Shown here piece by piece: positions 28,160-42,412 of a DNA stretch of 64,000 nt (its first letter is position 1; the number at the start of each line of letters is the position of its first letter). The DNA comes from Actinomycetes bacterium. Its GTDB lineage: Bacteria; Actinomycetota; Actinomycetes; Jiangellales; Jiangellaceae. Where the stretch lies: assembly GCA_021793295.1 (NCBI GenBank), contig JAJYTA010000004.1, positions 442 to 64,441 of the forward strand. The letters run 5' to 3'. A model generated the notes under the pieces. It did no database searches and had not been told where the DNA came from. It saw nothing but the letters and a program-made list of their open reading frames with translations. The position numbers and the translations under genes were made by a program.

Positions 28160-28957
28160 TCACTCTTCTCTCGTCTGCTCGACCACCCACGCACCGATCC
28201 GCCGGATCAGCGGCTCGGTCGCTCCGGCTTCGGCGTGCCCGAACCCGCGCTCCAGCCACAGCGTGGCATCGCCGGCCGCCGAGTGCACGTGCCACGCGTG
28301 ATGCAGCGGGAAGTAGTCGTCCTCGTCGCCGTGCACCACCAAGAGCGGGACGTCGACCTCGGCTGCCGCGGCTCGCGCGTCGATGGGGTCGGCTGCCCAA
28401 CCGGCCGGCGACACCCGGGTGCGCCGGGTGAGCCGGAGCACCGTGCGCCCGACCCGGGTCAGGATCAACCGGTGCAGCGTGCGCATCGCGGCGGTCCCGC
28501 GGTAGTGCCACTCGCCGGGTACGCTGACGGCCACGACGGCGTGCACGCCCCGGTGCAACGCGGCGTGCCGGACCACGACGGCCGAACCGAGCGAGAACCC
28601 CACTGTGGCCACCCGCCGGTACCCGAGCGCGTGCGCCCAGTCGATGGCGGCGTCGACGTCGAGCACCTCGCGCCAGCCGAGCGTGGAGTGACCGCGCGAG
28701 CGACCGTGCCCGCGCAGGTCGATCAGGACCACGCCGGCGCTTTGGCTCAGCCAGCCGGCGATGAGCCGCATCTTCGGGCTGCGCGAGTTCTGGGTGAATC
28801 CGTGCGCGACGACCACCGCGAGGTCGTCGTCGGGATCCGCGCCGGGAAAGTGCTCGCCTTGCAGGACGGTGCCGTCGGCGGCGAGCAGGCGCCGACGCTG
28901 CCCCGTGCGCGCCGTACGCGCCGCATCCGGGGCGTCTGGAGCGAGCCGGTCGGCCAT
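28160..28957 (-). CDS. Alpha/beta hydrolase
   Basis: HGF, GFSLG nucleophile elbow, HGDED and GHAE. Confidence 0.88.
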
Positions 28958-29080
28958 GTCCGCTATTCTCCCTTACGAGGGACCTGGGCGACGACGCCGC
29001 CGGGTCCCTTGTGCGTTCGTGACGGATCACGCACCCGGGCGAACGTGACGTGCGAGCACGTCCGGAGGAGGGGCGTACCG

Positions 29081-29857
29081 ATGCCGACCATCGTTCTGCT
29101 GACCAACTCACCCCAGTCGTCGGCCGACGTGTTGCCCGCGCTCGGATTCCTCCTACACCAGGTACGGATCCTGCCGGCTGAAGCGTCAGCGCTGGTCGAT
29201 GCGCCCAGCGGCGACGTCGTCATGGTCGACGCGCGTCGCGACCTGACCCACGCGCGTGCCCTGACCCGGGTGATCCGCACGACCGGCATCGACGTCCCGC
29301 TGATGGCCATCGTCACCGAGGGCGGTCTGGCCGCGGTCACGGTGGAGTGGGGCATCGACGACGTCATGCTCGACACGGCCGGACCGGCCGAGGTCGAGGC
29401 CAGGCTCCGGCTGGCGCTGGGCCGCGTCGCAGCCACCAACGACGACTCGCCGGACGAGATCCGTACCGGTGAGCTCGTGATCGACGAAGCCACCTACACC
29501 GCGAAGATCGCCCGGCGCACCCTCGACCTCACGTACAAGGAGTTCGAGTTGCTGAAATTCCTCGCCCAGCATCCCGGGCGCGTGTTCACCCGCGCTCAGC
29601 TCCTGCAGGAGGTGTGGGGCTACGACTACTTCGGCGGCACCCGGACGGTGGACGTCCACGTGCGCCGGTTGCGCGCGAAGCTCGGTCCCGACCACGACGC
29701 CCTCATCGGCACGGTCCGCAATGTCGGTTACCGCTTCGTGCCGCCGCAATCGCGCACGGGGCGTACCCACCCGGGCAGCGAGGCCTTGCTCGGTGAACCC
29801 GATCAGCCCGCGAGGGCTGACGACGAGGCGGTCGACTCCACCGCGTCCACCGACTGA
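29081..29857 (+). CDS. glnR: Nitrogen regulator GlnR (orphan OmpR family)
   Basis: LLTN..VLPALG..VDARRDL atypical receiver, winged helix [15 protein letters not shown], adjacent to mshD. Confidence 0.9.
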
Positions 29858-29892: not shown

Positions 29893-30804
29893 ATGGCCAT
29901 CTTCGCCGCAGGCGCCTTCGATGCCTCCACCCTCGCGGTCATCAGCCAGTTCGCCGACCGCGCCCGGGCGGCCGACGGCGTGGCGCCGTTCTCCGACGAC
30001 TTGTGGGCCGCGGCGAGGCAGGGGCGCACCGAGCTCACGCTGACGCTGACCGACCAGCATGAGGACGTCTGCGGAGTGGCCTTCACCGCGCACCAGGGTG
30101 ATCGACTGGCCGCCGAACTGCTGGTCGATCCGCAGCGACGACGCCGTGGCTTCGGCGGCCAGTTGCTGGCGGAGTTGCTGGACCGTACGGACGGCGAGCT
30201 GTGGATCTGGGCGCACGGTGATCTGCCCGGCGCCCGCGCGCTCGCACGGCGCCACCGCCTCGAGCGTGCCCGCGAGCTCCTGCAACTCAGACGGCCGGTA
30301 GGTCCTGACGCTCCGCCGCTTCCCGAGGTTCGGCTGCCGGACGGCGTGCGGATCCGTACCTTCGTGGTGGGCCAGGACGAAGCAGCATGGCTGAAGGTGA
30401 ACAACGCCGCGTTCAGCTGGCACCCGGAGCAGGGCGGGCAGACGATCGACGACATCCGCGCGGCGGAGTCCGCGGCAGATTTCGACCCGGCCGGGTTCTT
30501 TCTCGCCGTCGACGACGCCGATCAGGTCCTGGGCTTTCACTGGACCAAGGTGCACGCCGAAGATCCGTCGAATCCCGGCGGCGGGCCGATCGGCGAGGTC
30601 TATGTCGTCGGTGTGCACCCGGCAGCACACGGGCGCGGTCTCGGGGCTGCGCTCACCGCCGTCGGGCTACAGCATCTCGCCGACGTCGGCGGTGTCGAGA
30701 CCGTTCAGCTCTACGTCGAAGGCGACAACGCCGCAGCGCTGAAGGTCTACGAGCGTACCGGCTTCACCAGGCACGCGGTGGACGTCGCCTACCGGCGCGC
30801 CTAG
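29893..30804 (+). CDS. mshD: Mycothiol synthase
   Basis: Tandem GNAT; NNAAFSWHPEQG, GFHWTKVH, GEVYVVGV, LYVEGDN. Confidence 0.95.
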   Translation: MAIFAAGAFDASTLAVISQFADRARAADGVAPFSDDLWAAARQGRTELTLTLTDQHEDVCGVAFTAHQGDRLAAELLVDPQRRRRGFGGQLLAELLDRTDGELWIWAHGDLPGARALARRHRLERARELLQLRRPVGPDAPPLPEVRLPDGVRIRTFVVGQDEAAWLKVNNAAFSWHPEQGGQTIDDIRAAESAADFDPAGFFLAVDDADQVLGFHWTKVHAEDPSNPGGGPIGEVYVVGVHPAAHGRGLGAALTAVGLQHLADVGGVETVQLYVEGDNAAALKVYERTGFTRHAVDVAYRRA

Positions 30805-31625
30805 TCGTCGCGGGCGGCGAGGGCGAGCACCCGCCGGGCTTGCTCGACCATGGCAACGTCGAGGAACGAGCCGTCGGCCAGGACCGCTGTACCGTCGCCG
30901 AGGCTGGCTGCCGCCTCGACCGCGGCCACCACCTCTCGAGCCCGGCCGACCTCGGCCGCACCCGGCCGGAACGCCGCCTCGATGACCGGCAGCTGCTTCG
31001 GGTGGATCGCGGCCCGGCCGACGAACCCGAGTTGCCGCCCGCGCCGGGTCGACTCCGCCAATCCGTCCAGATCCGCGAGGTCCGGATAGACGGCCATCGC
31101 CGGCGGTGGCAACTCTGCCGCGCGCGCCGCCACCACGATCCGCTGCCGGCACCAGTCCAGCCCGTCCGGCCCAGTGACCCCGAGATCGGAGCGCAGATCC
31201 GCTTCGCCGAGGCCGATGGACGCCGCCCCCGGCGCCTGGGCGATCTCGAACGCCGCCTCGACGCCGCGGGCGGACTCGATCAGGCAATGCACCGGCCGCT
31301 CACCGACTGCCGCCACGACTCGCGCGACGTCGGCCGCGCCGGTCACCTTCGGCACTCGCACCGCCACCGCCGGTGGCAAGTCGGCGACCATGGCGAGATC
31401 GGCCGTGCCCCACGGTGACGACGGCGCGTTCACCCGCACCTGGACCGCCCGGTCCGGATGGGCGGCCAGGAGCGCCGGTACCGCCGACCGGGCCGCTTCC
31501 TTCGCAGCCGGCGCCACGGCATCTTCGAGGTCGAGGATCACCTCGTCGGACGCGGACCCCAGCGCCTTGTGCGCCCGGTCCGGCCGGTCCGCCGGCACGT
31601 ACAGCAGGGTCAGCACGAGCGTCAT
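30801..31625 (-). CDS. CitE/HpcH family acyl-CoA lyase
   Basis: LYVPADRP, LDLEDAV, IES, GEADL and IHPKQ motifs. Confidence 0.9.
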   Translation of the reverse strand: MTLVLTLLYVPADRPDRAHKALGSASDEVILDLEDAVAPAAKEAARSAVPALLAAHPDRAVQVRVNAPSSPWGTADLAMVADLPPAVAVRVPKVTGAADVARVVAAVGERPVHCLIESARGVEAAFEIAQAPGAASIGLGEADLRSDLGVTGPDGLDWCRQRIVVAARAAELPPPAMAVYPDLADLDGLAESTRRGRQLGFVGRAAIHPKQLPVIEAAFRPGAAEVGRAREVVAAVEAAASLGDGTAVLADGSFLDVAMVEQARRVLALAARDD

Positions 31626-32809
31626 ACCGCACCGGCCCCGCGTAGCTCGGCGATCTCAGTGGCGGTGTAGCCAAGATCACCGAGCACCTCGTCGGTGTCC
31701 GCGCCGTGGGCGCGCCCGGTCCACCGCACCTCGCCCGGCGTCGCGGACATCCGGAACAACACGTTCTGCATGGCCACCGGCCCCAGATCGTCGTCGTCCA
31801 TGGTCACGACGGTGCCGAGCGCGGCCAGCTGCGGGTCGGCGACGACGTCGGAGGCGTCGTACACCGGCGCGACCGCAGCCTGCGCTTCCTCGAAGGCTTC
31901 GACCACCTCGGCCCGGGTCCGTTCGGCCACCCACGCGGCGACTGCGGCGTCGAGCTCCTCGACGTGCTGGGCCCGGCCGGCACCCGTGGCGAACCATGGT
32001 TCGTCCACCAGCTCCGGCCGGCCGACCAGGCGCATCACTCGCTCGGCGATGCTCTGCGAGCTGGTGGACACCGCGACCCAGCGCCCGTCCCGAGTGCGGT
32101 ACGTGTTGCGCGGCGCGTTGTTCACCGAGCGGTTCCCGGTGCGCGGCTGAATGGTCCGCAACTGGTCCCAGCGGGTGATCTGCGGGCCGAGGACCGACAG
32201 CATCGGCTCGATGATCGAGAGGTCGACCACCTGGCCCGCGCCGGTCCGCGACCTGGCCTGCAACGCGGCGGTCACCGCGAACGCCGTCGCGAGCGCGGTG
32301 ATGCCGTCGGCCAGGCCGAACGGCGGCAGAGTCGGTGGGCCGTCCGGTTCCCCGGTCATCGCCGCGAATCCGCTCATCGCCTCGGCGAGCGTGCCGAACC
32401 CGGGCCGGCGCCGGTACGGGCCGACCTGGCCGAAGCCGGTGACACGGGCCAGCACCAGGCCGGGGTTGTCCGCCGACAACTGGTCGTAGCCGAGGTTCCA
32501 GCGCTCCAACGTGTCCGGCCGGAAGTTCTCGATCACCACGTCGGACTGTGCGGCAAGCCGCAGGAACACCTCCCGGCCGCCGGGCTGGGACAGATCGGCG
32601 GTGACCGTCCGCTTGTTCCGCCCGAGCGTCTTCCACCACAGGTTGTGGCCGTCCTTGGCTGGTCCGTGCCCGCGGGACGGGTCCGGCCGGCGCGGATGCT
32701 CGACCTTCACGACGTCGGCGCCCATGTCGCCCAGATGCATCGCCGCGATCGGCCCGGCGAACAGCGTCGCCGCGTCCACGACGCGGATGCCCTCCAACGG
32801 CCCGCTCAC
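31622..32809 (-). CDS. Family III (CaiB/BaiF) CoA-transferase
   Basis: GADVVKVE, ENFRP, GFGQ and LAD catalytic region. Confidence 0.93.
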   Translation of the reverse strand: MSGPLEGIRVVDAATLFAGPIAAMHLGDMGADVVKVEHPRRPDPSRGHGPAKDGHNLWWKTLGRNKRTVTADLSQPGGREVFLRLAAQSDVVIENFRPDTLERWNLGYDQLSADNPGLVLARVTGFGQVGPYRRRPGFGTLAEAMSGFAAMTGEPDGPPTLPPFGLADGITALATAFAVTAALQARSRTGAGQVVDLSIIEPMLSVLGPQITRWDQLRTIQPRTGNRSVNNAPRNTYRTRDGRWVAVSTSSQSIAERVMRLVGRPELVDEPWFATGAGRAQHVEELDAAVAAWVAERTRAEVVEAFEEAQAAVAPVYDASDVVADPQLAALGTVVTMDDDDLGPVAMQNVLFRMSATPGEVRWTGRAHGADTDEVLGDLGYTATEIAELRGAGAV

Positions 32810-33726
32810 CGGCCCACCTCCGCGGCATCGAGGAAGGCGTCGATCTCGGCGCGGCCCGGCATCGACGACGATGCACCGAACCGCTGGACCGACAGCGCGG
32901 CCGCAGCGGAGGCGCGGCGCAGCGAGGCGGACCAGTCCACGCCTTCGGCGAGCCCGACCGCGAGGACGCCGGCGAAGGTGTCCCCGGCCGCGGTGGTGTC
33001 GACTGCGTCGACGGCGAACGGCGGCACTCGGCGCACCGTAGGCTGATCGGCCGCGCTGACGTGCAGCGCACCCGAGCGGCCCAGCGTGATGACGACGTCA
33101 CGACCACCGGCGGCCAAGCTGCGAGCCGCCGCGTCCGCAGCACCGGCGCCGGTCAGCAGCGCCGCCTCGTGCTCGTTCGGGACCAGGACGTCGACCGCGG
33201 CGAGCAGCGAGTCCGGCAGGGGAACCGCCGGCGCCGGGGTGAGAACGGTACGCACACCACGTTCTCGGGCATATGTCGCGGCCGCGCCGACGACCGCCAG
33301 CGGCAGTTCGAGCTGGAGCAGGAGCAGGTCGGCGGCCTCGATACCCGCCCGATGGTCCTCGGTGAGAGAGCTGACCGTGCCGTTGGCTCCGGGAACGACG
33401 ACGATCGAGTTGTCGCCGGCCGCGTCGACGACGATGTGCGCGGTCCCGGTCGGCTGGTCGACAGTGGCCAGCCCGGACACGTCGATACCCGCATCGCGCA
33501 GGAGGTTGGTGATCCGACGCCCGTGCTCGTCGTCGCCGACCGCACCGAGAAACGTCACCGTGCCACCGGCTCGGGCCGCCGCCAGCGCCTGGTTGGCACC
33601 CTTGCCACCGGGAACGGTGTGCAACGAATGTCCCGGGACGGTCTCGCCCCGCTGCGGCGCCCGGTCGACGGTGACGACCAGGTCCATGTTGGCGCTGCCG
33701 AGAACCGCGATTCTGCCGCCGCTCAC
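32806..33726 (-). CDS. rbsK: Ribokinase (PfkB family)
   Basis: GSANMD, GGKGANQA, PNEHE and DTTAAGDTF motifs. Confidence 0.9.
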   Translation of the reverse strand: MSGGRIAVLGSANMDLVVTVDRAPQRGETVPGHSLHTVPGGKGANQALAAARAGGTVTFLGAVGDDEHGRRITNLLRDAGIDVSGLATVDQPTGTAHIVVDAAGDNSIVVVPGANGTVSSLTEDHRAGIEAADLLLLQLELPLAVVGAAATYARERGVRTVLTPAPAVPLPDSLLAAVDVLVPNEHEAALLTGAGAADAAARSLAAGGRDVVITLGRSGALHVSAADQPTVRRVPPFAVDAVDTTAAGDTFAGVLAVGLAEGVDWSASLRRASAAAALSVQRFGASSSMPGRAEIDAFLDAAEVGR

Positions 33727-35033
33727 TGGCGTATCTCCCTTCGCTCGGCGACCGCGAGCGTCCGGCGGGCCAGTGCGTCGAACCCGATGCCGTCGAATCC
33801 GCTCAGCGTGGAGGTCACCCGATTGCGCAGCGGCGCCGTCCAGCGTTGCGGCAACCCGGACGCGCCGGTCAGCGCGCCGGTGATCGAGCCGACCGTCGCA
33901 CCGTTCGAGTCGGTGTCCCAGCCGCCGCTGACGACGGCGGTGATCGAGCGCTCGAAGTCGCCCGCGCCGTACACGAGCGCAGCGACGACCAGTGCGGCGT
34001 TGTTCAGCACGTGGACCCAGTGCAGGTGCCCGTAGCGTTGCTCGATCGCATCGACGACGGCCTCGAAGTCGCCGTGCCGGCCCGGCAGCGCCCGGGCGAA
34101 CCGCACGGCCTCGGCGTACCGGGAGGACGCAGGGACGACGGACAACCCGGTGTCGAGTACGTCGTCGACCGACGAGGCCACCACTGCGCTTGCGCAGGCC
34201 GCAGCGACGAACATCTCGCCGTACACGCCGTTGCGGGTGTGACTGAGCACGGCGTCGCGCCAGGCCAGCTCGGCGGCCCGAGCCGGGTCACCGGGACACG
34301 CCCAGCCGAACACGTCACCGCGGATCTGCGCGCCGATCCAGTCCCGGAACGGGTTGCGCACCCGCGCGGTCTGCGGTGGGACGTGACCAAGAAGGAGGTT
34401 GCGGTAGGCCACTCGCTCGGCGGTGAACACCCGCCCGGCCGGCAACTCGAGCAGCCAGCTCTCGGCGACGTCCTCGGTGGTCACCTCCGTCCCGTGCGCT
34501 TCCAGCAGAGCGAGGTTGAGCATCGGGAAGTTGAGGTCGTCGTCCTCGGGCATGCCGTCGATGTTCTCGGCCAGGCTGGTCGGCGCGCTGCGTCGGTTCC
34601 AGGGCCACCGTGCGGCGACCTCGTCGGGTAGTCCCACGGCGGTGAACCAGTCGTCGAGCGGCCATCGCCCGGTCGCTTCGAGGATCTCGCGGATGCCCCG
34701 GCGCGGGATCTTCTCGACCGGCTTGCCGAGCAGGCAGCCGGCCGCCCGGCCCAGCCACGCACCGTGTACCCGGTCGTAGGAAGTGGCGGCGTCCGGCCCG
34801 GGATGCACCGGCTGAGTCACCGCGCGAATGGCGTCGAAGTCCGTCGGCTCGGACTCGTCATAGACAGACCGCCGAGCGTCGATCTCGTCGAGCAGGTCCG
34901 CGGCGACCACGCTGCGATCATCGGTCGTCGCGTCCCAGCGCGACCGCAGCCCCGCCACGTCCACGCCGTCCTCGTCGGCCTGGGCGAACGCGTGCTCGAC
35001 GAGCTCATCCGGCCGCACCCAGGTGAGCTGCAT
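33723..35033 (-). CDS. ADP-ribosylglycohydrolase-fold protein D (N-terminal extension)
   Basis: AGCLLGKPVE, EDDDLN, GWDTDSNGAT. Confidence 0.88.
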   Translation of the reverse strand: MQLTWVRPDELVEHAFAQADEDGVDVAGLRSRWDATTDDRSVVAADLLDEIDARRSVYDESEPTDFDAIRAVTQPVHPGPDAATSYDRVHGAWLGRAAGCLLGKPVEKIPRRGIREILEATGRWPLDDWFTAVGLPDEVAARWPWNRRSAPTSLAENIDGMPEDDDLNFPMLNLALLEAHGTEVTTEDVAESWLLELPAGRVFTAERVAYRNLLLGHVPPQTARVRNPFRDWIGAQIRGDVFGWACPGDPARAAELAWRDAVLSHTRNGVYGEMFVAAACASAVVASSVDDVLDTGLSVVPASSRYAEAVRFARALPGRHGDFEAVVDAIEQRYGHLHWVHVLNNAALVVAALVYGAGDFERSITAVVSGGWDTDSNGATVGSITGALTGASGLPQRWTAPLRNRVTSTLSGFDGIGFDALARRTLAVAERREIRQ

Positions 35034-36181
35034 CAGTGCATCAGCTCCTCGAACGCCGCATCGGCGGCAGCTGTCCGGGCACGATCGGCGGCCCGGATCT
35101 CCATCGCCACGGCCGCCAGCCGCTCCCCCGGTGCGACCAGGTCGGTCCGGCTGGCGCTCGCGACGGCGTCGCACAGGTCGGCGGGCACGGCCGAGCGCCC
35201 GCCCAGCGTCCCGGCGATGGCGCCGGCCATCGTGGCGATCGAGTCGGAGTCGCGCCCGTAGTTGACCCCGCCGAGCACGGCGTCCCGCCAGTCACCGCCG
35301 GCGATGGCCAGCATGGCCAGCGCTATCGGCAGCTCCTCGATGGCATGCAGCCGGCTCGGCCGCCGGGCACCGAGGCCCTGATCGCGGTAGTCCTCCCCCA
35401 CCGTGTCGTACGGCGCGACGGCCCGCCGGAGCTTGCCCGATTCGACCGCCTCGGTCCAGTGCCCGATGGACGCCGTGGCCTCGAGCACGGCGTCGATCGC
35501 CGCTCGGGTGCCGTCCTTGGCCAGCCGGCTGGCGGTCGAGAGAACGTCATCGATCGTCGCCCGAGGTGCGGCGGCAGCGGCGACACAGGCCGCCATGACA
35601 CCGGCCGCCTCGCGGCCGTACGACGACTGGTGCGCGCCGGCGACATCGATGGCCTCGGCGTATGCGCCGTCCGGATCGGCGGCGTTCACAATGCCGACCG
35701 GCGCGATGTACATCGCCGCGCCGCAGTTCACCGCATTGCCGACGCCCGCCTCGCGCGGATCGGCGTGCCCCCAGTGCAGCCGCAGCGCGATGTACTTCTC
35801 GGCGAGGAATACCCGCTGCAGGGGCAGCGCCCGGGCTTCGAGTTCGGGGATCCACGTCTCGCGGCCGATCATCAGCGGCACCAGACGCTCCGCCACGTCG
35901 TACGCACTGAGGTGGGAACGGGCCTGTTCGTACACCTCGACGAGCAGGTGGGTCATCAGGGTGTCGTCGGTGACGTGCCCGTCGCCCTTGTGGTACGGCG
36001 CGATCGGGCGAGCGGTCTTCCAGTCCTCGAAGTAGGGGGGAACGATGCCCTCCACCCAGCCGCCCCAGCGCTGCCGGATCTGCTGCGGTGACCAACCCTC
36101 CGTCGCTCCCCCGAGTGCATCACCAACGGCGGCGCCGGTCAGGCAGCCGACCGCGCGGTCCACGAGCGCGTTATCGGTCAC
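35033..36181 (-). CDS. ADP-ribosylglycohydrolase-fold protein C
   Basis: GDALG, TDDT, GRDSDS; GTG 36181 overlaps upstream stop. Confidence 0.9.
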   Translation of the reverse strand: MTDNALVDRAVGCLTGAAVGDALGGATEGWSPQQIRQRWGGWVEGIVPPYFEDWKTARPIAPYHKGDGHVTDDTLMTHLLVEVYEQARSHLSAYDVAERLVPLMIGRETWIPELEARALPLQRVFLAEKYIALRLHWGHADPREAGVGNAVNCGAAMYIAPVGIVNAADPDGAYAEAIDVAGAHQSSYGREAAGVMAACVAAAAAPRATIDDVLSTASRLAKDGTRAAIDAVLEATASIGHWTEAVESGKLRRAVAPYDTVGEDYRDQGLGARRPSRLHAIEELPIALAMLAIAGGDWRDAVLGGVNYGRDSDSIATMAGAIAGTLGGRSAVPADLCDAVASASRTDLVAPGERLAAVAMEIRAADRARTAAADAAFEELMH

Positions 36182-37236
36182 GAATCGCTCTCTCCCCTCC
36201 ATGCGGCCAGCTGCCGCGCCAGTTTCACCAGATCTGTTCCAGCGAGGTCCCCTGTGCAACACCCCGCCAGCCATCGGCACCGGGCTACCCAACCGGCCGG
36301 CCAGGAGTCCGCACCGCAGGCCGCCCCGACCAGCGCACCGGTCAACGCCGGTGCGCTGTCGGCGAGCGCCGGCAGGCACACCGCCGCCGTCACCGCGTCG
36401 ATCGGCGCCCCGCGCGATCGCTCGTTGACCTGTGCCAACGCGAGAGCGACCGGGACGGTTTGGGCCGCTGCCACGCCGTAGCTGTAGACGTGATCGACCA
36501 GCTCGGCGAGCGCGGGGACGGCTTCGGCGGGCGAGCCGGCCCGGGCGGTCGCTGCCAGCGCACGTTCGGTCGTCTCCGCCAGCAGCCCGTTCGACGGGAG
36601 CCGGGACGCAGCAGCGGTCCACGACGCCACGAGCGGCTCCCCCGCGATCAGCCGGGCGACCGTCTCGGCGATCACCTGTGCGGCGGCCACCCCGTCGTCG
36701 GCGTTGGTCACTTCGGCGTCCCACCCCGCCACCTGCGCGGCGCGTGCCGGGTCCGGAACGGCCGCGGCGATCGCGACCGCGCGGATCGCCGCGGCGTCGT
36801 CGAAATGATGCGGGTTGTCGTGCCCGCTGACGGGCGGATCGATGCCGCGCCGAAGCGAGTCGGCTGCGGTGGCGACGCTGATCCGGCCGCGAGGCAACGC
36901 TTCGTCCAGCGCGGCTCGGCGCCAGCCCGCGTGCACACCGGCGCGGGTGATCGGCCCGGCGGAGTCGAGCAGCCACCGGGCCGTCCACGCTGCCCATTCC
37001 GCGTCGTCGCTGGGCCCCAGTCGCAGCGGCTGCGTCGGCTGGTTCAACGAGAACGGCACCGGAAGCGTCGTGACCTGCTCGGTCTCGGAGAACTCCACCA
37101 GCTCGCGGTGCAGGCGACGAGTCCACGGCGGGAGCAGGTGCGCCCGGTGCCGCACCGATGGCCACCCCGCCGCGTCACCGATGGCCAGCCCGAGCAAGGC
37201 CCCGGCGACCCGATCTGGTTCCGTCCGAGCGCTCAC
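36178..37236 (-). CDS. ADP-ribosylglycohydrolase-fold protein B (degenerate C-terminal motif)
   Basis: GDAAG and SDDAE present; LADSA replaces DxD[TS]. Confidence 0.85.
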   Translation of the reverse strand: MSARTEPDRVAGALLGLAIGDAAGWPSVRHRAHLLPPWTRRLHRELVEFSETEQVTTLPVPFSLNQPTQPLRLGPSDDAEWAAWTARWLLDSAGPITRAGVHAGWRRAALDEALPRGRISVATAADSLRRGIDPPVSGHDNPHHFDDAAAIRAVAIAAAVPDPARAAQVAGWDAEVTNADDGVAAAQVIAETVARLIAGEPLVASWTAAASRLPSNGLLAETTERALAATARAGSPAEAVPALAELVDHVYSYGVAAAQTVPVALALAQVNERSRGAPIDAVTAAVCLPALADSAPALTGALVGAACGADSWPAGWVARCRWLAGCCTGDLAGTDLVKLARQLAAWRGESDS

Positions 37237-38183
37237 GCCGAGACCCCCGCACGCTCGGTCAGGCGGTCAGCGAGGTCCAGCGGATGCCATCCGGCCACCA
37301 CCGGCCCCAGGCACCGGCCGGACACCGGTCCGATGAGCGCCTGCCACGCCGCCGGGACAGCACCGAGCCCGCCATGAGCACCCGCCAAGGCGCCGGCGAT
37401 GGCCGCGGTCGTGTCGGCGTCGCGCCCCATCGCCACCGCACCCGGGACGGCCGCGGCGAACTCGCCCTCGGCGGCGAGGAAGGCCGCGAACGCCAGCGCG
37501 ATCGCCTCCGGGCCGAGGTCGGTCCACGGGTACTGCGACACCACGACGGCATCGAGCAGGGCAGCTGTGTCGCCGGCGTGGGCCACCGACGCCGCCAGCG
37601 ACCGGGCCGTCCAGGAGTCGGCGGGAACGGCGCGCCGGGCATGATCGACGATCTCGCCCGGTTCGGCCCCGCCCATCGCCGCCGCCACCGCGGCGGCGAC
37701 CGCGACGCCCGCGTGGATGCCTTCGCCGTCGTGGCTGACCGCTCCGTCGACGGCTGCCAGCCGCGCCGCTTCGGCCGGCTCTCCGGCGGCGAAGACACCG
37801 TGGACCGCTGAGCGCATCGCCAGCCCATCGCTCCAGGAGTGCAGGTGCCGGCCGCTGGCCGGTGGCCGGATTCCGGCGCGCAAGTTCTCCAGCGTTCCCA
37901 GCTCGCTGAATCCGGCGCCCGGGAAGCCCGCCCGGTCGGCGAGGTGCGTCACCCAGGCATCCGCGACGTGGTCGCTGGTCAGGTCAGGTCCGTGGGTGAG
38001 CAGGAGCAGAGCGCTGAAGGTCGCGTACTCGGTGTCGTCGGTGCCGGCCGGCTCGTCGGTGAGGAACCCGTCGATCCGGCCCCACCGCTCGGCGATCGCC
38101 GCAGCGGTCATGTTCTCCGCCGGGGCGCCCATCGCGTCGCCCACGGCCAACCCGAGCAAGCACCCTTGCGCTCGTTCCCGCAT
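37233..38183 (-). CDS. ADP-ribosylglycohydrolase-fold protein A
   Basis: GDAMG, TDDTE, GRDADT. Confidence 0.92.
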   Translation of the reverse strand: MRERAQGCLLGLAVGDAMGAPAENMTAAAIAERWGRIDGFLTDEPAGTDDTEYATFSALLLLTHGPDLTSDHVADAWVTHLADRAGFPGAGFSELGTLENLRAGIRPPASGRHLHSWSDGLAMRSAVHGVFAAGEPAEAARLAAVDGAVSHDGEGIHAGVAVAAAVAAAMGGAEPGEIVDHARRAVPADSWTARSLAASVAHAGDTAALLDAVVVSQYPWTDLGPEAIALAFAAFLAAEGEFAAAVPGAVAMGRDADTTAAIAGALAGAHGGLGAVPAAWQALIGPVSGRCLGPVVAGWHPLDLADRLTERAGVSA

Positions 38184-38196
38184 GCTCGCACCCGCC

Positions 38197-39489
38197 TCAG
38201 CGCTGGTATCGCTCGAGGATCGCGTTGCCCTCGTCGACGAGCTTCGAGCCGAGGTCGTCCATCGACAGCGAGTTGGCGAAGAACTCCTCGATCGCGGGGT
38301 TGGCGACCTTGTTCTTCCACTCCTCGTAGCCGCGCACCGTCTGGAACGGCGCCTGCTCGAGGATCGCGCCGGAGGCTGCAGCGACCGGCCAGTCCGGGGT
38401 CTCGGTCAGCACCTCGTTCTCAGCGGCGCCCTCGCTGGCCGGGATCATCCAGTCGCCCTTGGCCAGCGTCGCCTGGTTCTCGGCATTGAGCAGATACTCC
38501 AAGAAGGCCATCGCTTCCTCGGGGTGCTCGGTCTCCGCCGCGATCGACACGGTCTGCGGCGCCGCCGCCTGCGTCTGCGACTCGCCCTTCAGGGCCGGGA
38601 TCGTGACCCATTCGAAGCCCTCCGGCGCCTGGTCCATGATCTGCTGACGGAACCAGATGCCCTTGGGGAGCAGCGCGTACTGCCCGTCGAAGAAGCCGGG
38701 CAACGGGTCCGAACCGCCCATGCCGATGGCTTCGGGAGCGGCGGACTGGTCCACGTACAACTGGTCGTGGATGCGCTGGAGGACCTCCTTCTCCGCATCA
38801 CCGAACACCACCTCGCTGGCGCCGTCGGATTCGGTGAAGAACTCCCCGCCGAAGTTGAGCGCGAGGTTGAGGATGCGGTTCGCCGGGTCCTTCAGCGTCC
38901 ATGCCACCCCGTAGGTGTCGGCATCGGTGAGCTTGCGTGAGATCTCGGCGAACTCGTCCCAGGTCCATGGGTCGTCGGGAGCCGGAACCTCGATTCCGGC
39001 CTGGTCGAGCAGCGCCTTGTTGGCGAAGATCACCTGCGCGTCGAGCAGGAACGGCACCGCGTAGACGGAGTCGTCGAAGGTCACTGCGTCCCACGCGCCG
39101 TCGCGGATGTCGTCCTTCATCTCGTCGGAGATCATGTCGGTGAGGTCGAGCAGCCAGCCGCGGTCGGCGAAGTCCTGCAGGTAGGAGGACTCGTAATGCA
39201 CCAGATCCGGTGCTGTGCCGCCTTCGAACGCCGTCACCAATTGGTCTTGCACCGACGCCCAGTCACCCTGCAGGTACTCCACCTGGATGTCAGGGTGGTC
39301 GGCGTTCCACTGCTCGATGATCTCCTTGTTGGCTTCGATCGATTCCGGCTGGAATGCCAGGGCTTGGAAGGTGAGCTGGACGGGGCCGTCATCGGTACCG
39401 GAGCTGTCTCCGGCGCCGCAGGCCGCGAGCACAAGACCGGTGCTCATCGCCGCGGTCACGACGGTCGCTCTGCGCACGATGCTCTTCAC
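38197..39489 (-). CDS. Carbohydrate ABC substrate-binding lipoprotein
   Basis: GTG 39489 after GGAGG, lipobox LAAC, CUT1-type fold. Confidence 0.92.
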   Translation of the reverse strand: MKSIVRRATVVTAAMSTGLVLAACGAGDSSGTDDGPVQLTFQALAFQPESIEANKEIIEQWNADHPDIQVEYLQGDWASVQDQLVTAFEGGTAPDLVHYESSYLQDFADRGWLLDLTDMISDEMKDDIRDGAWDAVTFDDSVYAVPFLLDAQVIFANKALLDQAGIEVPAPDDPWTWDEFAEISRKLTDADTYGVAWTLKDPANRILNLALNFGGEFFTESDGASEVVFGDAEKEVLQRIHDQLYVDQSAAPEAIGMGGSDPLPGFFDGQYALLPKGIWFRQQIMDQAPEGFEWVTIPALKGESQTQAAAPQTVSIAAETEHPEEAMAFLEYLLNAENQATLAKGDWMIPASEGAAENEVLTETPDWPVAAASGAILEQAPFQTVRGYEEWKNKVANPAIEEFFANSLSMDDLGSKLVDEGNAILERYQR

Positions 39490-39527
39490 GGTTGTCCTCC
39501 TGAACGAGGGTTCGAACGGACAGGTCT

Positions 39528-40364
39528 TCATGACTTCACCGCACCGCCGAGCAGCCCCCCGACGAGGCGCCGCTGGATGATCGCGAAGAAGACGAGGCTG
39601 GGAATGGTCGCCACCAGCGCGGCCGCGGCGAGCGGACCGAGCCGGGCGACCCCGTCGGCGCCGATGAACTTCACCAGCGTCAGCGAAATGGTCTGGAGCT
39701 CGGGCGTGCGCAGGAGCACCAGCGCGAACAGGAATTCGTTCCAGGCCGACACGAACGCGAACATCGCCGCGGCCACCACACCCGGTACGAGCAACGGCGC
39801 CACCACTTCCCGCAACGCCCGCAGCTTGCCGGCTCCGTCGATCGCCGCCGCCTCCTCGAGCTCGACCGGAATGCCGCTGACGTAGCTGCGCAGCATCCAC
39901 AGCGCGAACGGCATGCTCCAGACGACGTACACGATGATCAGGCCGAGCTGGGTGTCGTACAGACCGGCGTTCCGCAGGACCAGGAACAGCGGGATGATGA
40001 CGAGGATGAACGGGAACAGCTGGCTGAGCAGCACCCACAGCATCGTCAAGCGGCTGACGGCCGACCGGTACCGAGCCATCACGTAGGCCGCCGGGATGGA
40101 CAGGACCACGGTGATCAACGCCGAGGTGCCGGCCACGACGACGGTGTTCAGCAGCGCGCGGGCGATGGGTTGCTGCTCGAAGGCGACCCGGAAGTTCTCC
40201 AGCGTGGGGTTCTCCGGGATGATCGTGGGCTCGATCCGAGCGATCTCCGGTGGTGTCTTCAACGCCGTGGAGAGCAGCCACAGCAACGGGAAGGCGAGAA
40301 AGACCAGGTAGGCGATCAGCGCCACGTACTTGCCGGGGGTGGACAGAGAGCGGAGCACGCGCAT
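39528..40364 (-). CDS. Carbohydrate ABC permease (MalG-like)
   Basis: ELEEAAAIDGA EAA loop, WNEFLFA. Confidence 0.93.
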   Translation of the reverse strand: MRVLRSLSTPGKYVALIAYLVFLAFPLLWLLSTALKTPPEIARIEPTIIPENPTLENFRVAFEQQPIARALLNTVVVAGTSALITVVLSIPAAYVMARYRSAVSRLTMLWVLLSQLFPFILVIIPLFLVLRNAGLYDTQLGLIIVYVVWSMPFALWMLRSYVSGIPVELEEAAAIDGAGKLRALREVVAPLLVPGVVAAAMFAFVSAWNEFLFALVLLRTPELQTISLTLVKFIGADGVARLGPLAAAALVATIPSLVFFAIIQRRLVGGLLGGAVKS

Positions 40365-40367
40365 GAT

Positions 40368-41312
40368 TCAGTCCGCCTCCTTCAGCCGGCGACGCAGGTA
40401 GAGCACGACGAACACGGCCATGACGATGACCATGGCGTTGCCCAACGCCGCCGCGTACGCGTAGTTGCCGTACCGGAACGCCTCCTCGTAGGCGAAGAGC
40501 AACGGCAGCCGGGTGGCGCCGCCGGGACCGCCCTGGGTGAGGACGTACACCAGGCCGAAGGAGTTGAAGTTCCAGATGAAGTCCAGCGTCGTCATCGCGA
40601 ACGCCACCGGCCGCAGCGCGGGCCAGGTCACCGCGCGGAAGCGCTGCCAGGCATTCGCCCCGTCCACGGCCGCCGCCTCGACCAGTTCGGTCCGCACGCT
40701 CTGCAGCCCGGCGAGCAGAACGACTGTGGTCTGCGGCATCCCGGCCCAGACGCCGACGACGATGACCGCGGGCAGCGCCAGCGACAGCGACGTCAACCAC
40801 TCGACGTTCGAGTCGATGACGCCGAGGTCTTTGAGGACGCTGTTCAGGATGCCCGCGTTCGGGTGATACACCAGCCGCCACATGATGCCGATGACCACCT
40901 GGGGCATCGCCCACGGGACGATGGCGAGCGTCCGCGCCAACCAGCGCATCCGGATTCGCTGATTGAGCAGCAGCGCCAGCCCCAAGCTGGCGAAGAACTG
41001 CAGGATCGTCACCCCGAACGCCCAGACCAGGCCGATCCGGAACGACTCCCAGAAGTAGGAGTCCCCGAGCATGGTCGCGTAGTTGTCCAGCCCGGTGAAC
41101 GAGAACTCCAGGTCTCGGCCGGCGCGGGCGTCGGTGAAACCGAGGTAGATCCCCCGCAGCAGCGGGTACAGGCTGAAGATCACCACCGGGATCAGCGCCG
41201 GGACAGCGAGGAACAGCGCCTCCCGGTTCAGCCCGAGGAACGTCCGCCGGGGCTGCGCGGCGGTGGGCTCGGGTGCCGGTGGCCGAACTGTCGGCGTACG
41301 CGTCGACGTCAT
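40368..41312 (-). CDS. Carbohydrate ABC permease (MalF-like)
   Basis: EAAAVDGA loop, FTGLDNY. Confidence 0.93.
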   Translation of the reverse strand: MTSTRTPTVRPPAPEPTAAQPRRTFLGLNREALFLAVPALIPVVIFSLYPLLRGIYLGFTDARAGRDLEFSFTGLDNYATMLGDSYFWESFRIGLVWAFGVTILQFFASLGLALLLNQRIRMRWLARTLAIVPWAMPQVVIGIMWRLVYHPNAGILNSVLKDLGVIDSNVEWLTSLSLALPAVIVVGVWAGMPQTTVVLLAGLQSVRTELVEAAAVDGANAWQRFRAVTWPALRPVAFAMTTLDFIWNFNSFGLVYVLTQGGPGGATRLPLLFAYEEAFRYGNYAYAAALGNAMVIVMAVFVVLYLRRRLKEAD

Positions 41313-42307
41313 CGGCTACTCTCCCGGATGGTCAACGATGGAGGGACGGTGACCCGCTCCGGCGGCGAATCGTCGCCGTTCATCCGAGCGAGCAAGAGCT
41401 TCGCGGCGATCCGCCCACGGTCGGCCGAGCCCAGGGACACGCTCGACAATGGCGGGAAGCTGGTGGCGGCCAGAGTGGTGTCGTCCATGCCGACGACGCG
41501 CACGTCGTCCGGGACGGTCCGGCCGAGTTCGCGCAGGGCATGCAGGGTGCCCATGGCGATGAGGTCGTTGGCTCCGAACACCGCGTCGACGTCGGTCCGC
41601 GTCAGCACCTCACGAGCGGCCCGCCGGCCGGACTCGAACTGAAAGTCGGCGAACTCCACCAGGTCGTCGTCGAGAGGCAGCCCGCAGGCGGCGAGCCCGG
41701 CACGGTAACCGGCGTACCGGGCTTCGCCGGGCACGGTGTCGATCGGGCCGTCGATGAACGCGATGCGCCGGGCTCCTGCGGCGTACAAGTGCTCGACGGC
41801 CATCCGCGCGCCCACGCGGGAGTCGGCGCGTACGTTGTCGACCGACACGTCGTCGGGCAGCAGCCCGATCACGATGACCGGGACCGCGGTTTCGCGCAGC
41901 GCGGCCACATGGCGCCCGGTCACCCGCAGCGGGCACAGGATCAGGCCGTCGACGTAGTTCTGGCTCAGGCTGTCCAGCACGCTGACCTCGTCCTCGACGT
42001 CGGCACCGGTGCTGTGCAGGAGCAGCCGGTACCCGGCGTCGCGCAGGACCGGCTGGATCTGGCGGACCATCTCCAAGTAGGCGGCGTTGCCGATGTCCTC
42101 CATGGCGAAGGCGACCTGGGCGGTGTGGCGCGTCTTCAGCGACTGCGCCACCTGGCTGGGGACGTACCCGAGTTGCTGCACCGCCGCCTCGACCCGGGCG
42201 ACCATCTCGGCGTTCGACGTGTTCCCGTTGAGTGCGCGCGACACCGAGGAGATCGACACACCGGCGACCTTGGCGACCTCATGGATCGTCGGCCGTCGGC
42301 GCTGCAT
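41309..42307 (-). CDS. LacI-family transcriptional regulator
   Basis: PTIHEVAKVAGVSISSVSRALN HTH; ATG 42307 after GAGGAG. Confidence 0.95.
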   Translation of the reverse strand: MQRRRPTIHEVAKVAGVSISSVSRALNGNTSNAEMVARVEAAVQQLGYVPSQVAQSLKTRHTAQVAFAMEDIGNAAYLEMVRQIQPVLRDAGYRLLLHSTGADVEDEVSVLDSLSQNYVDGLILCPLRVTGRHVAALRETAVPVIVIGLLPDDVSVDNVRADSRVGARMAVEHLYAAGARRIAFIDGPIDTVPGEARYAGYRAGLAACGLPLDDDLVEFADFQFESGRRAAREVLTRTDVDAVFGANDLIAMGTLHALRELGRTVPDDVRVVGMDDTTLAATSFPPLSSVSLGSADRGRIAAKLLLARMNGDDSPPERVTVPPSLTIRESSR

Positions 42308-42322
42308 CGAGATCAACTCCTC

Positions 42323-42369
42323 GGAAACGTTTCCAGCAGTGGCGACATCCCGGCCCTGGAAACGTTTCC
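42323..42369. promoter_or_regulatory. Two LacI-type operators GGAAACGTTTCC (42323-42334, 42358-42369)
   Basis: Two identical perfect 12-bp palindromes 35 bp apart upstream of the LacI gene. Confidence 0.85.
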
Positions 42370-42382
42370 GGGATGTCCCGAC

Positions 42383-42412
42383 ATTTAAAGACCCGGCTGG
42401 GCTCGCCGTCAA
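42383..42412 (-). promoter_or_regulatory. Housekeeping-sigma promoter of the ARH operon
   Basis: TTGACG-N18-TTAAAT immediately upstream of the operators. Confidence 0.65.

Follow-up and report, generated by a model that had tools for sequence, protein, structure and literature searches.

What is the function of an operon that encodes four members of the ADP-ribosylglycohydrolase (ARH) family together with a sugar-type importer, a ribokinase and two enzymes of acid-CoA metabolism? The ARH fold is regarded as an eraser of ADP-ribosylation, and its bacterial paralogues, of which Streptomyces coelicolor has eight, are usually read as traces of hidden ADP-ribosyl signalling. We analysed such an operon in a stretch of 64,000 nucleotides (hereafter the window; positions 442 to 64,441 of contig JAJYTA010000004.1, assembly GCA_021793295.1) from a member of the Jiangellaceae whose 4.67-Mb genome is 99.99% complete. 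That this is a catabolic operon which releases ribose appears to us very probable. With less assurance, and still as the reading that we favour, we propose from gene content and context that it is a LacI-repressed operon for the breakdown of an extracellular compound in which several ribofuranoses would be glycosidically joined to a hydroxy-polycarboxylic (citrate-like) acid.

Eleven genes lie on the minus strand between 30801 and 42307, and their families were assigned with Pfam and NCBIfam (Table 1). From 5′ to 3′ they encode a LacI-family repressor, two permeases, a binding lipoprotein, the paralogues ARH-A, -B, -C and -D, a ribokinase, a family III CoA-transferase and a CitE-type lyase, and none contains an internal stop. 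After correction of three start codons, the computed junctions are -4, +3, -4, +13, -4, -4, -1, -4, -4 and -4 nt. The original prediction, a model's reading of the letters and open reading frames, had described eleven co-oriented genes with mostly short overlaps in 30801-42412; its genes, families and coordinates were borne out, with junctions mostly of -4 nt, and a lacI start at TTG 42412 had to be given up. Orthologue starts coincide with ATG 42307, and a GAGGAG Shine-Dalgarno sequence and both operators are found upstream of that codon. ARH-C starts at GTG 36181, within a GTGA that overlaps the ARH-B stop, and the binding protein starts at ATG 39531.

A search with ARH-B yielded 80 loci out of 140 matching stretches, from Jiangella, Haloactinopolyspora, Phytoactinopolyspora, Nonomuraea, Microbispora, Sphaerisporangium, Streptomyces, Actinocatenispora and Nocardiopsis, and the closest relatives are Jiangellaceae. 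The gene arrangement is not due to chance, because orthologous operons with the same gene order occur in these 80 loci of other species, the kind of neighbourhood conservation that had been put forward as a check. Where no contig end interrupts a locus, its order LacI-ABC-ARH A-B-C-D-RbsK is retained, the exceptions being Streptomyces loci without LacI and ABC genes and loci without a ribokinase. Distribution is patchy: ARH-B orthologues were present in 5/24 sampled genomes of the same family and, in an even sample of 400 Actinomycetota, in 9/10 genomes of one genus (probably Streptomyces) and 0/390 others.

Table 1. Genes and operators of the ARH operon (window coordinates).
Feature	Position	Strand	Basis and remarks
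Operator O1, perfect 12-bp palindrome GGAAACGTTTCC	42358..42369		50 nt upstream of lacI
Operator O2, perfect 12-bp palindrome GGAAACGTTTCC	42323..42334		15 nt before lacI ATG; GAGGAG Shine-Dalgarno directly after
LacI-family repressor, 332 aa	41309..42307	-	Pfam LacI PF00356 and Peripla_BP_3 PF13377; first gene of the operon
ABC permease 1, MalF/UgpA-like, CUT1 type	40368..41312	-	BPD_transp_1; NCBIfam UgpA/MalF-like
ABC permease 2, MalG-like	39528..40364	-	BPD_transp_1; NCBIfam GlcU/MalG-like
Solute-binding lipoprotein, 444 aa, CUT1 oligosaccharide type	38197..39531	-	SBP_bac_1 146 bits; lipobox LVLAAC
ARH-A, 316 aa	37233..38183	-	PF03747 179 bits; canonical site
ARH-B, 352 aa	36178..37236	-	PF03747 106 bits; degenerate site
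ARH-C, 382 aa	35033..36181	-	PF03747 160 bits; canonical site
ARH-D, 436 aa	33723..35033	-	PF03747 178 bits; variant site
Ribokinase	32806..33726	-	PfkB; TIGR02152 310.0 bits, cut-off 299.65
Family III CoA-transferase, 395 aa, SUGCT/CaiB-like	31622..32809	-	CoA_transf_3 PF02515 412 bits
CitE/HpcH-type acyl-CoA lyase, 274 aa	30801..31625	-	HpcH_HpaI PF03328 118 bits

The repressor has both an HTH_LacI domain and a periplasmic-binding-protein-like effector domain; its best NCBIfam match is RbsR (202 bits, under the cut-off of that model), and UriR is also among the matches. In its own promoter region are two palindromes with a central CG, and these are the only two copies of GGAAACGTTTCC in the whole genome (0.05 copies would be expected in the window). 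Every related locus with a lacI gene (~70 loci in 8 genera) has 1-3 copies of the related motif G[GT]AAACGTTT[CA]C in the ~110 nt before lacI, and the motif is essentially absent from the rest of the 20-kb loci; Streptomyces loci without lacI have no copies. Micromonospora, too, has three copies. LacI control, as originally proposed, is thus supported by palindromes that are unique in the genome, close to lacI, and conserved before lacI in related loci. With operators that are computed and repressor binding that is predicted, we conclude that this is a dedicated, putatively autoregulated LacI operon.

On contig C265 (locus L113, 5966-12545) a third operator-like site, GTAAACGTTTTC, is positioned 20 nt before another CUT1 operon, which encodes a binding protein, a pair of permeases, another LacI and an S9 alpha/beta-hydrolase of 691 aa that has a PD40 beta-propeller. 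We considered this site as a further operator of the ARH-operon repressor and rejected it: it precedes a different LacI/ABC operon and is probably the site of that regulator. The C265 operon could be a paralogous system, or it could be cross-regulated with the ARH operon.

Uptake and the fate of the sugar are indicated by the importer and the kinase. The two MalF/MalG-type permeases and the SBP_bac_1 binding protein define a CUT1 importer. There is no ABC_tran ATPase gene in the operon, the rest of the genome not having been searched for one; actinomycetes usually rely on a shared MsiK-type ATPase whose gene lies elsewhere. The kinase is the sole gene of the genome above the TIGR02152 ribokinase cut-off and keeps, by eye, the ribose-contact motifs GSANMD, GGKGANQ and AAGD of Escherichia coli RbsK. 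In the operon, Pfam and NCBIfam scans detected no gene for a Nudix, macrodomain or ADP-ribosyltransferase protein, and none of the four ARHs has a signal peptide. The original prediction had argued that a small molecule, not a modified protein, is imported and hydrolysed, and that free ribose is released. The CUT1 importer with its lipoprotein, the ARHs without signal peptides, the missing Nudix and macrodomain genes, and a secreted esterase that belongs to the regulon of relatives (see below) all favour the former, and a kinase that passes the ribokinase equivalog as the only such gene of its genome favours the latter.

The four ARHs score well above the PF03747 cut-off of 26.2 bits, and no other PF03747 gene was found in the 4.67-Mb genome. 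We counted their motifs in 76-80 orthologues per paralogue and found that the di-metal ligands of the family, comprising an N-terminal Glu, [TS]DD[TD] and DxD[TS], are conserved in ARH-A, -C and -D. ARH-A has the canonical signature GDA[LM]GAPAE / GTDDTEY / GRDADT, kept in 77 orthologues (GDAMGAPAE here). ARH-C, also canonical (GDALGGATE / TDDT / GRDxDS, with GRDSDS here), is the most conserved paralogue at 64-89% identity and has orthologues in two-ARH operons of Micromonospora and Nocardioides, and the signature of ARH-D is a variant (GC[VL]LGKPVE / PEDDDLN / GWDTDS, with GCLLGKPVE here). ARH-B does not conform. Its signature, GDAAGWPA-x / PSDDAEW / [LV]ADSAPAL, has no Glu in the first motif and ADSAP in place of DxDT, with loss of the second metal motif. 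These deviant residues are strictly conserved in 80 orthologues, which argues for a selected subunit, non-catalytic or altered, and not for a decaying gene; ARH-B is likely a non-catalytic partner, and the four proteins possibly form an A/B/C/D assembly with a pseudo-enzyme subunit.

ARH-D, the only ARH that was modelled, gave an AlphaFold2 (AF2) model with a pLDDT of 93.5, an all-alpha ARH fold and a helical N-terminal extension of ~90 aa. Its best Foldseek matches were DraG (TM 0.80), MJ1187 (0.79) and ARH3 (~0.7), at 15-19% identity, and the ARH3 complexes in this list contain the alpha-linked ribosyl ligands alpha-NAD+ and alpha-1''-O-methyl-ADP-ribose. A PDB sequence search with the ARHs returned no close solved relative (<20% identity to any solved member) and no clue to the substrate; the DraG and Tri1 equivalog models are far under their cut-offs. 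Homologues of ARH-D number more than 7000, and all are annotated merely as 'ADP-ribosylglycohydrolase family protein'. In Streptomyces sp. NPDC050738 (L044 65-4477), a second, partial ARH A/B/C-like set with an extra CitE-like gene is found on the opposite strand just upstream of a complete operon, and looks like a local duplication.

The last two genes raise the question of whether an acid is part of the same pathway. Among equivalog models the CoA-transferase comes closest to succinate-glutarate CoA-transferase (241 bits, cut-off 750), no equivalog cut-off was reached, and its PDB relatives are 4ed9 and 9br6, the latter human succinate-hydroxymethylglutarate CoA-transferase. The lyase is likewise under the cut-offs of RipC/Ccl (147 bits against 375) and CitE (126 against 443), and in the PDB it matches 8khl/9nzb, an 'acyl-CoA lyase beta chain' (8e-39). 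Of proteins with a name, human SUGCT is closest to the CoA-transferase, and Ccl/RipC or CitE to the lyase. Because all of these scores are far under their cut-offs, the acid substrate is probably different from citrate, itaconate and citramalate.

The pair is a more faithful companion of ARH-C and -D than is the ribokinase. Within the ARH-B set it is found directly downstream of the ARH and RbsK genes in 7 genera (Jiangella, Haloactinopolyspora, Phytoactinopolyspora, Microbispora, Sphaerisporangium, Streptomyces and Actinocatenispora), and homologues of ARH-D led to further ARH-linked pairs in Micromonospora, Nocardioides, Actinopolymorpha, Actinoallomurus and Actinorhabdospora. Co-occurrence with the ARH set, on which the original prediction depended, thus extends to 12 genera and at least 6 families, with Nonomuraea as the exception. 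Among 40 relatives, CoA-transferases with at least 77% identity were confined to 5 genomes with the ARH tetrad, and versions at 62-65% identity were present in 4 genomes without it. In a maximum-likelihood tree of the CoA-transferase the ARH-linked copies form one clade (support 100/99), which includes the long-branched Nonomuraea copies, and the window copy adjoins that of Haloactinopolyspora alba. On balance we think it likely that the acid module belongs to the same pathway as ribose release. In an uncultured actinomycete metagenome-assembled genome (L024 17354-18313) and in Actinoallomurus (L121 12488-13423), a Ppx/GppA phosphatase gene directly follows CitE and may be an accessory gene of the operon.

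These elements can be arranged into a pathway. In the uninduced state LacI would bind the two GGAAACGTTTCC operators, which overlap the ribosome-binding region of lacI itself, and would block the whole transcript. The lipoprotein and the two CUT1-type permeases, energized by an ATPase presumably encoded elsewhere, would take up the compound. In the cytoplasm ARH-A, -C and -D, with their full metal-site signatures, would act as ribofuranosidases on different ribosyl bonds, with ARH-B as their putative non-catalytic partner, and the ribokinase would phosphorylate and thereby trap the freed ribose. The remaining acid, whose linkage to ribose we infer from gene context, would be turned into its CoA thioester by the family III CoA-transferase. 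CitE-family lyases give acetyl-CoA and a 2-oxo acid, and the CitE-type lyase is predicted to cleave the thioester in this way, as happens also in malyl-CoA lyase and citramalyl-CoA lyase, so that the pair would carry out the two-step chemistry of citrate lyase (CitF/CitE) with free CoA.

For the substrate itself we suggest, tentatively and as something possible rather than probable, ribocitrin, which is a tririboside of (S)-homocitric acid from Streptomyces, or its congeners. Ribocitrin fits the enzyme inventory because its several ribosidic bonds correspond to several ARHs, its ribose to the ribokinase and its homocitrate to the acid module. Homocitrate would be converted to homocitryl-CoA and then to acetyl-CoA and 2-oxoglutarate, the reverse of the homocitrate synthase condensation, and the products of ribocitrin would be 3 ribose-5-phosphate, acetyl-CoA (or acetate) and 2-oxoglutarate. 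The makers of ribocitrin are soil actinomycetes, the same group as the carriers of the operon, and two reports, of 2025 and 2026, give a tentative detection of the compound in cultures of Streptomyces (PMC12381216, PMC13136089; both cite Takashio et al. 1982). Our literature search retrieved nothing on homocitrate catabolism, homocitryl-CoA or homocitrate lyase, nothing on ribofuranosidase, and nothing on ARH combined with esterase and ribose.

Additional genes in relatives bear on the nature of the substrate. In 5 Nonomuraea genomes (9-14 Mb) the operator GTAAACGTTTAC is confined to the ARH operon and one other site each, the latter always just upstream of a gene for a secreted protein of 640-720 aa with a PF00756 esterase domain and SBBP beta-propeller repeats. 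In three Jiangella species and one Phytoactinopolyspora, the gene for the same esterase (46-52% identical) is divergent from lacI and has an operator copy to itself. Its closest solved relatives are CE1 ferulic-acid esterases and, for the propeller, CylK. Secretion of this regulon member points to an extracellular substrate. Many relatives also carry a gene for a cytoplasmic protein of 615-660 aa, inserted before the CoA-transferase. Foldseek gave a clear FGE fold for its C-terminus and weak GH27/GH29/GH13-like matches for its N-terminus, a TIM barrel plus beta-sandwich; the AF2 model is poor (pLDDT 58), and the N-terminal 450 aa had no Pfam match. The evidence for a glycosidase N-terminus is suggestive. 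No orthologue of the esterase or of the FGE-like protein was found in the genome behind the window.

Operon architecture varies along with the FGE-like protein. The order in Micromonospora and Actinorhabdospora is LacI-ABC-ARH C-ARH D-PfkB-[FGE-domain protein]-CoA-transferase-CitE; Nocardioides has this two-ARH order plus a cytoplasmic PF00756 esterase, and Actinopolymorpha and Actinoallomurus have LacI-ABC-four ARH-CoA-transferase-CitE without a ribokinase. The FGE-like protein is present in all three two-ARH operons that we saw and absent from most four-ARH operons, and because of this pattern ARH-A and -B may replace it. In Haloactinopolyspora alba (L012 1-4578) the gene directly upstream of lacI, in the same orientation, codes for a protein of >1500 aa that has both GH92 alpha-mannosidase and F5/8 type C domains; no operator link was seen there. 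A link to PARG was considered in Nonomuraea sediminis (L020 14311-16179), where a STAS plus microbial-type PARG (macrodomain) gene lies convergent right after the ribokinase; occurring in 1/80 loci, it is probably a coincidence.

Several observations weigh against the pathway as drawn. Ribokinase is missing from a number of loci (L024, L061, L066, L077, L079, L081, L120 and L121), and in Streptomyces L030, L034, L036, L042, L043, L060 and L077 there is no LacI, importer or operator, the ARH-RbsK-CoA-transferase-CitE genes being present (L077 again without ribokinase). About 45 Nonomuraea loci end at the ribokinase, with no CoA-transferase-CitE pair at the operon; in 5 Nonomuraea genomes the pair occupies another site, where it is accompanied by a divergently encoded GntR/FCD regulator and by a DctM-like permease but has no LacI operator, and the acid module can therefore work independently, on free imported acid. 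Such a stand-alone module is what one would predict were extracellular release of the acid possible as well. The best PDB relatives of the binding protein, which are distant matches, bind neutral oligosaccharides and offer no clue to the substrate, and we know of no ARH-fold enzyme that hydrolyses a plain riboside. As to ribocitrin, an alpha configuration of its ribosidic bonds is our assumption, and the ribocitrin model leaves both the regulon esterase and the GH-like/FGE-like protein of relatives unexplained.

Some of these same features are what one would expect of general ribose scavenging, in which ribose would come from assorted ribosides or from ribose-containing, ester-decorated glycans, such as O-acylated ribofuranose-bearing bacterial polysaccharides, and the CoA-transferase and CitE would be a separate hydroxy-dicarboxylate pathway, for malate, citramalate or hydroxymethylglutarate, that shares the transcript. 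The autonomous acid operon of Nonomuraea, which lies outside the LacI regulon and is equipped with a GntR regulator and a carboxylate permease of its own, agrees with this explanation, as do the secreted CE1-type esterase within the regulon, the glycosidase-like TIM-barrel protein in many relatives, and the Bacteroidetes rus loci, which join ARH, esterases and ribokinase and whose ribose sources are unknown (bioRxiv 10.1101/574913). We regard it as unlikely, though deserving of serious attention: the acid pair is kept beside the ARHs throughout the 12 genera and at least 6 families, even in the absence of the ribokinase or the GH-like gene, overlaps of 4 nt couple it translationally, and its high-identity CoA-transferase is confined to tetrad-bearing relatives. 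The sugar might also be a furanose other than ribose, with the ARHs cutting apiose, arabinofuranose or another cis-diol or related pentofuranoside from plant-derived glycosides esterified with hydroxycinnamoyl or other acyl groups, and with a feruloyl-type esterase. CE1 ferulic acid esterases are the closest solved relatives of the regulon esterase, the importer is of the CUT1 oligosaccharide type, and some loci have no ribokinase; however, no locus contains arabinose or apiose catabolic genes, and the kinase passes the ribokinase equivalog, keeps the RbsK contact motifs by eye and is the only ribokinase of its genome, which makes this explanation improbable.

Two other explanations depart further from ribose catabolism. 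The Streptomyces literature lists SCO2028-2031 of S. coelicolor as putative ADP-ribosyl protein hydrolases (PMC5087735, PMC9411070), and on that assumption the four ARHs, members of the same family as DraG, ARH1 and ARH3, would de-ADP-ribosylate proteins, nucleic acids or antibiotics next to unrelated neighbours. The neighbours argue otherwise, in that translational coupling within a conserved operon ties the ARHs to an importer, a ribokinase and enzymes of acid-CoA metabolism, with a dedicated repressor of the sugar type in control, and no Nudix, macrodomain or ADP-ribosyltransferase gene accompanies them; ARH-B, moreover, is without catalytic residues. We consider de-ADP-ribosylation highly improbable here. 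Least probable of all, to the point that we give it hardly any weight, is that the cluster makes a ribosyl-homocitrate compound, with a CitE-type enzyme that condenses acetyl-CoA with 2-oxoglutarate and with ARHs as transglycosylases. CitE-type lyases are reversible, as established for malyl-CoA lyase, and some Streptomyces loci have neither importer nor LacI. The biosynthesis of ribocitrin is indeed unknown (PMC12381216, PMC13136089). Yet a binding-protein-dependent importer, a sugar-type repressor and a ribokinase are hallmarks of catabolism, and the operon encodes no ribosyl-donor-forming enzyme or phosphoribosyltransferase. Nor do we know of any ARH-fold transferase.

A catabolic, ribose-releasing operon thus remains our preferred interpretation, and the logic by which it joins a repressor and a transporter to ribosyl hydrolases and a ribokinase is already known from riboside scavenging. 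The uriR-rbsK1-uriT-uriH operon of Corynebacterium glutamicum and yegTUV of E. coli share this logic, with a ribokinase or PfkB kinase, but each encodes a single hydrolase and an MFS-type transporter and lacks both CoA-transferase and lyase. The uri hydrolase is of the IU-nucleoside hydrolase type, and yegU belongs to the ARH family and has no known function (PMC10819704). The Bacteroidetes rus polysaccharide utilization loci likewise pair a ribokinase and a regulator, often a LacI, with a variable complement of enzymes for ribose release, ADP-ribosylglycohydrolases and esterases among them (bioRxiv 10.1101/574913). They use SusC/SusD outer-membrane uptake and exported enzymes, whereas the window operon, which contains no SusC/SusD, has a CUT1 ABC importer of the Gram-positive kind, ARHs that stay in the cytoplasm and, in addition, an acid-CoA module, and the resemblance is functional only. 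The acid module shares two steps, acyl transfer onto a hydroxy-polycarboxylate and cleavage to an acetyl-thioester and a 2-oxo acid, with citrate lyase (CitF plus CitE), with Ict/Ccl of itaconate degradation and with human SUGCT plus CLYBL. It differs in having no acyl carrier protein (CitD), CitF or hydratase, and it would be coupled to riboside hydrolysis. With DraG, ARH1, ARH3 and MJ1187 the ARHs have in common the all-alpha fold (in the ARH-D model) and the di-metal motifs (in A, C and D), but their context is one of metabolism and not signalling, and one paralogue is a conserved pseudo-enzyme.

The closest counterpart may be in S. coelicolor itself. Streptomyces loci are flanked by gltBD-VIT and lgt-trpA, which we take to be the SCO2025-2036 neighbourhood and hence the site of SCO2028-2031; by synteny these four consecutive ARH paralogues would be the S. 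coelicolor counterparts of the tetrad. The window operon has, in addition, a LacI, an importer and a ribokinase. In the literature SCO2028-2031 appear only as adjacent, uncharacterised DraG/ARH homologues and putative ADP-ribosyl protein hydrolases (PMC9411070, PMC5087735), and SCO2028 and SCO2030 had no activity on U-alpha-ADPr (PMC13036486). That no substrate had been assigned, as the original prediction stated, agrees with the literature that we found (PMC9411070, PMC5087735, PMC13036486). In each of its points that can be examined by sequence, the original prediction was upheld.

New in this work are the definition of an operator and its regulon, the finding that coupling to an acid-CoA module is conserved, the two- and four-ARH architectures, a conserved pseudo-enzyme and a named candidate substrate. 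The operon argues that a large and widespread subgroup of ARHs are metabolic glycosidases, and a regulon, a coherent pathway and a purchasable or isolable candidate make the question of ARH substrates directly testable. Should the tentative ribocitrin assignment hold, proteins with the ARH fold would function as dedicated ribofuranosidases, the CoA-transferase together with the CitE-type lyase would constitute a previously unknown CoA-dependent 'homocitrate lyase', and bacterial ARH enzymes would have a first physiological small-molecule substrate, with SCO2028-2031 reassigned. A new route for the breakdown of a hydroxy-tricarboxylate (homocitrate) is thereby predicted.

Finally, we inspected the borders of the operon. 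It is preceded by a Methyltransf_19 gene. Scans for promoters and terminators gave no signal above chance inside the operon, and none was called as a promoter upstream of lacI; by eye, TTGACG-17-TTTAAAT is found there at ~42411-42383, and it does not satisfy the -10 rule of the scan. Downstream the operon is bordered by the convergent gene mshD (29893-30804). The CitE and mshD stops overlap by 4 nt (30801-30804), so that an intrinsic terminator has no room between them. Beyond mshD, an open reading frame on the plus strand (28235-29857), the long N-terminal portion of which is probably untranslated, has GlnR_1st and Trans_reg_C domains in its C-terminal half and encodes a GlnR-type nitrogen regulator.

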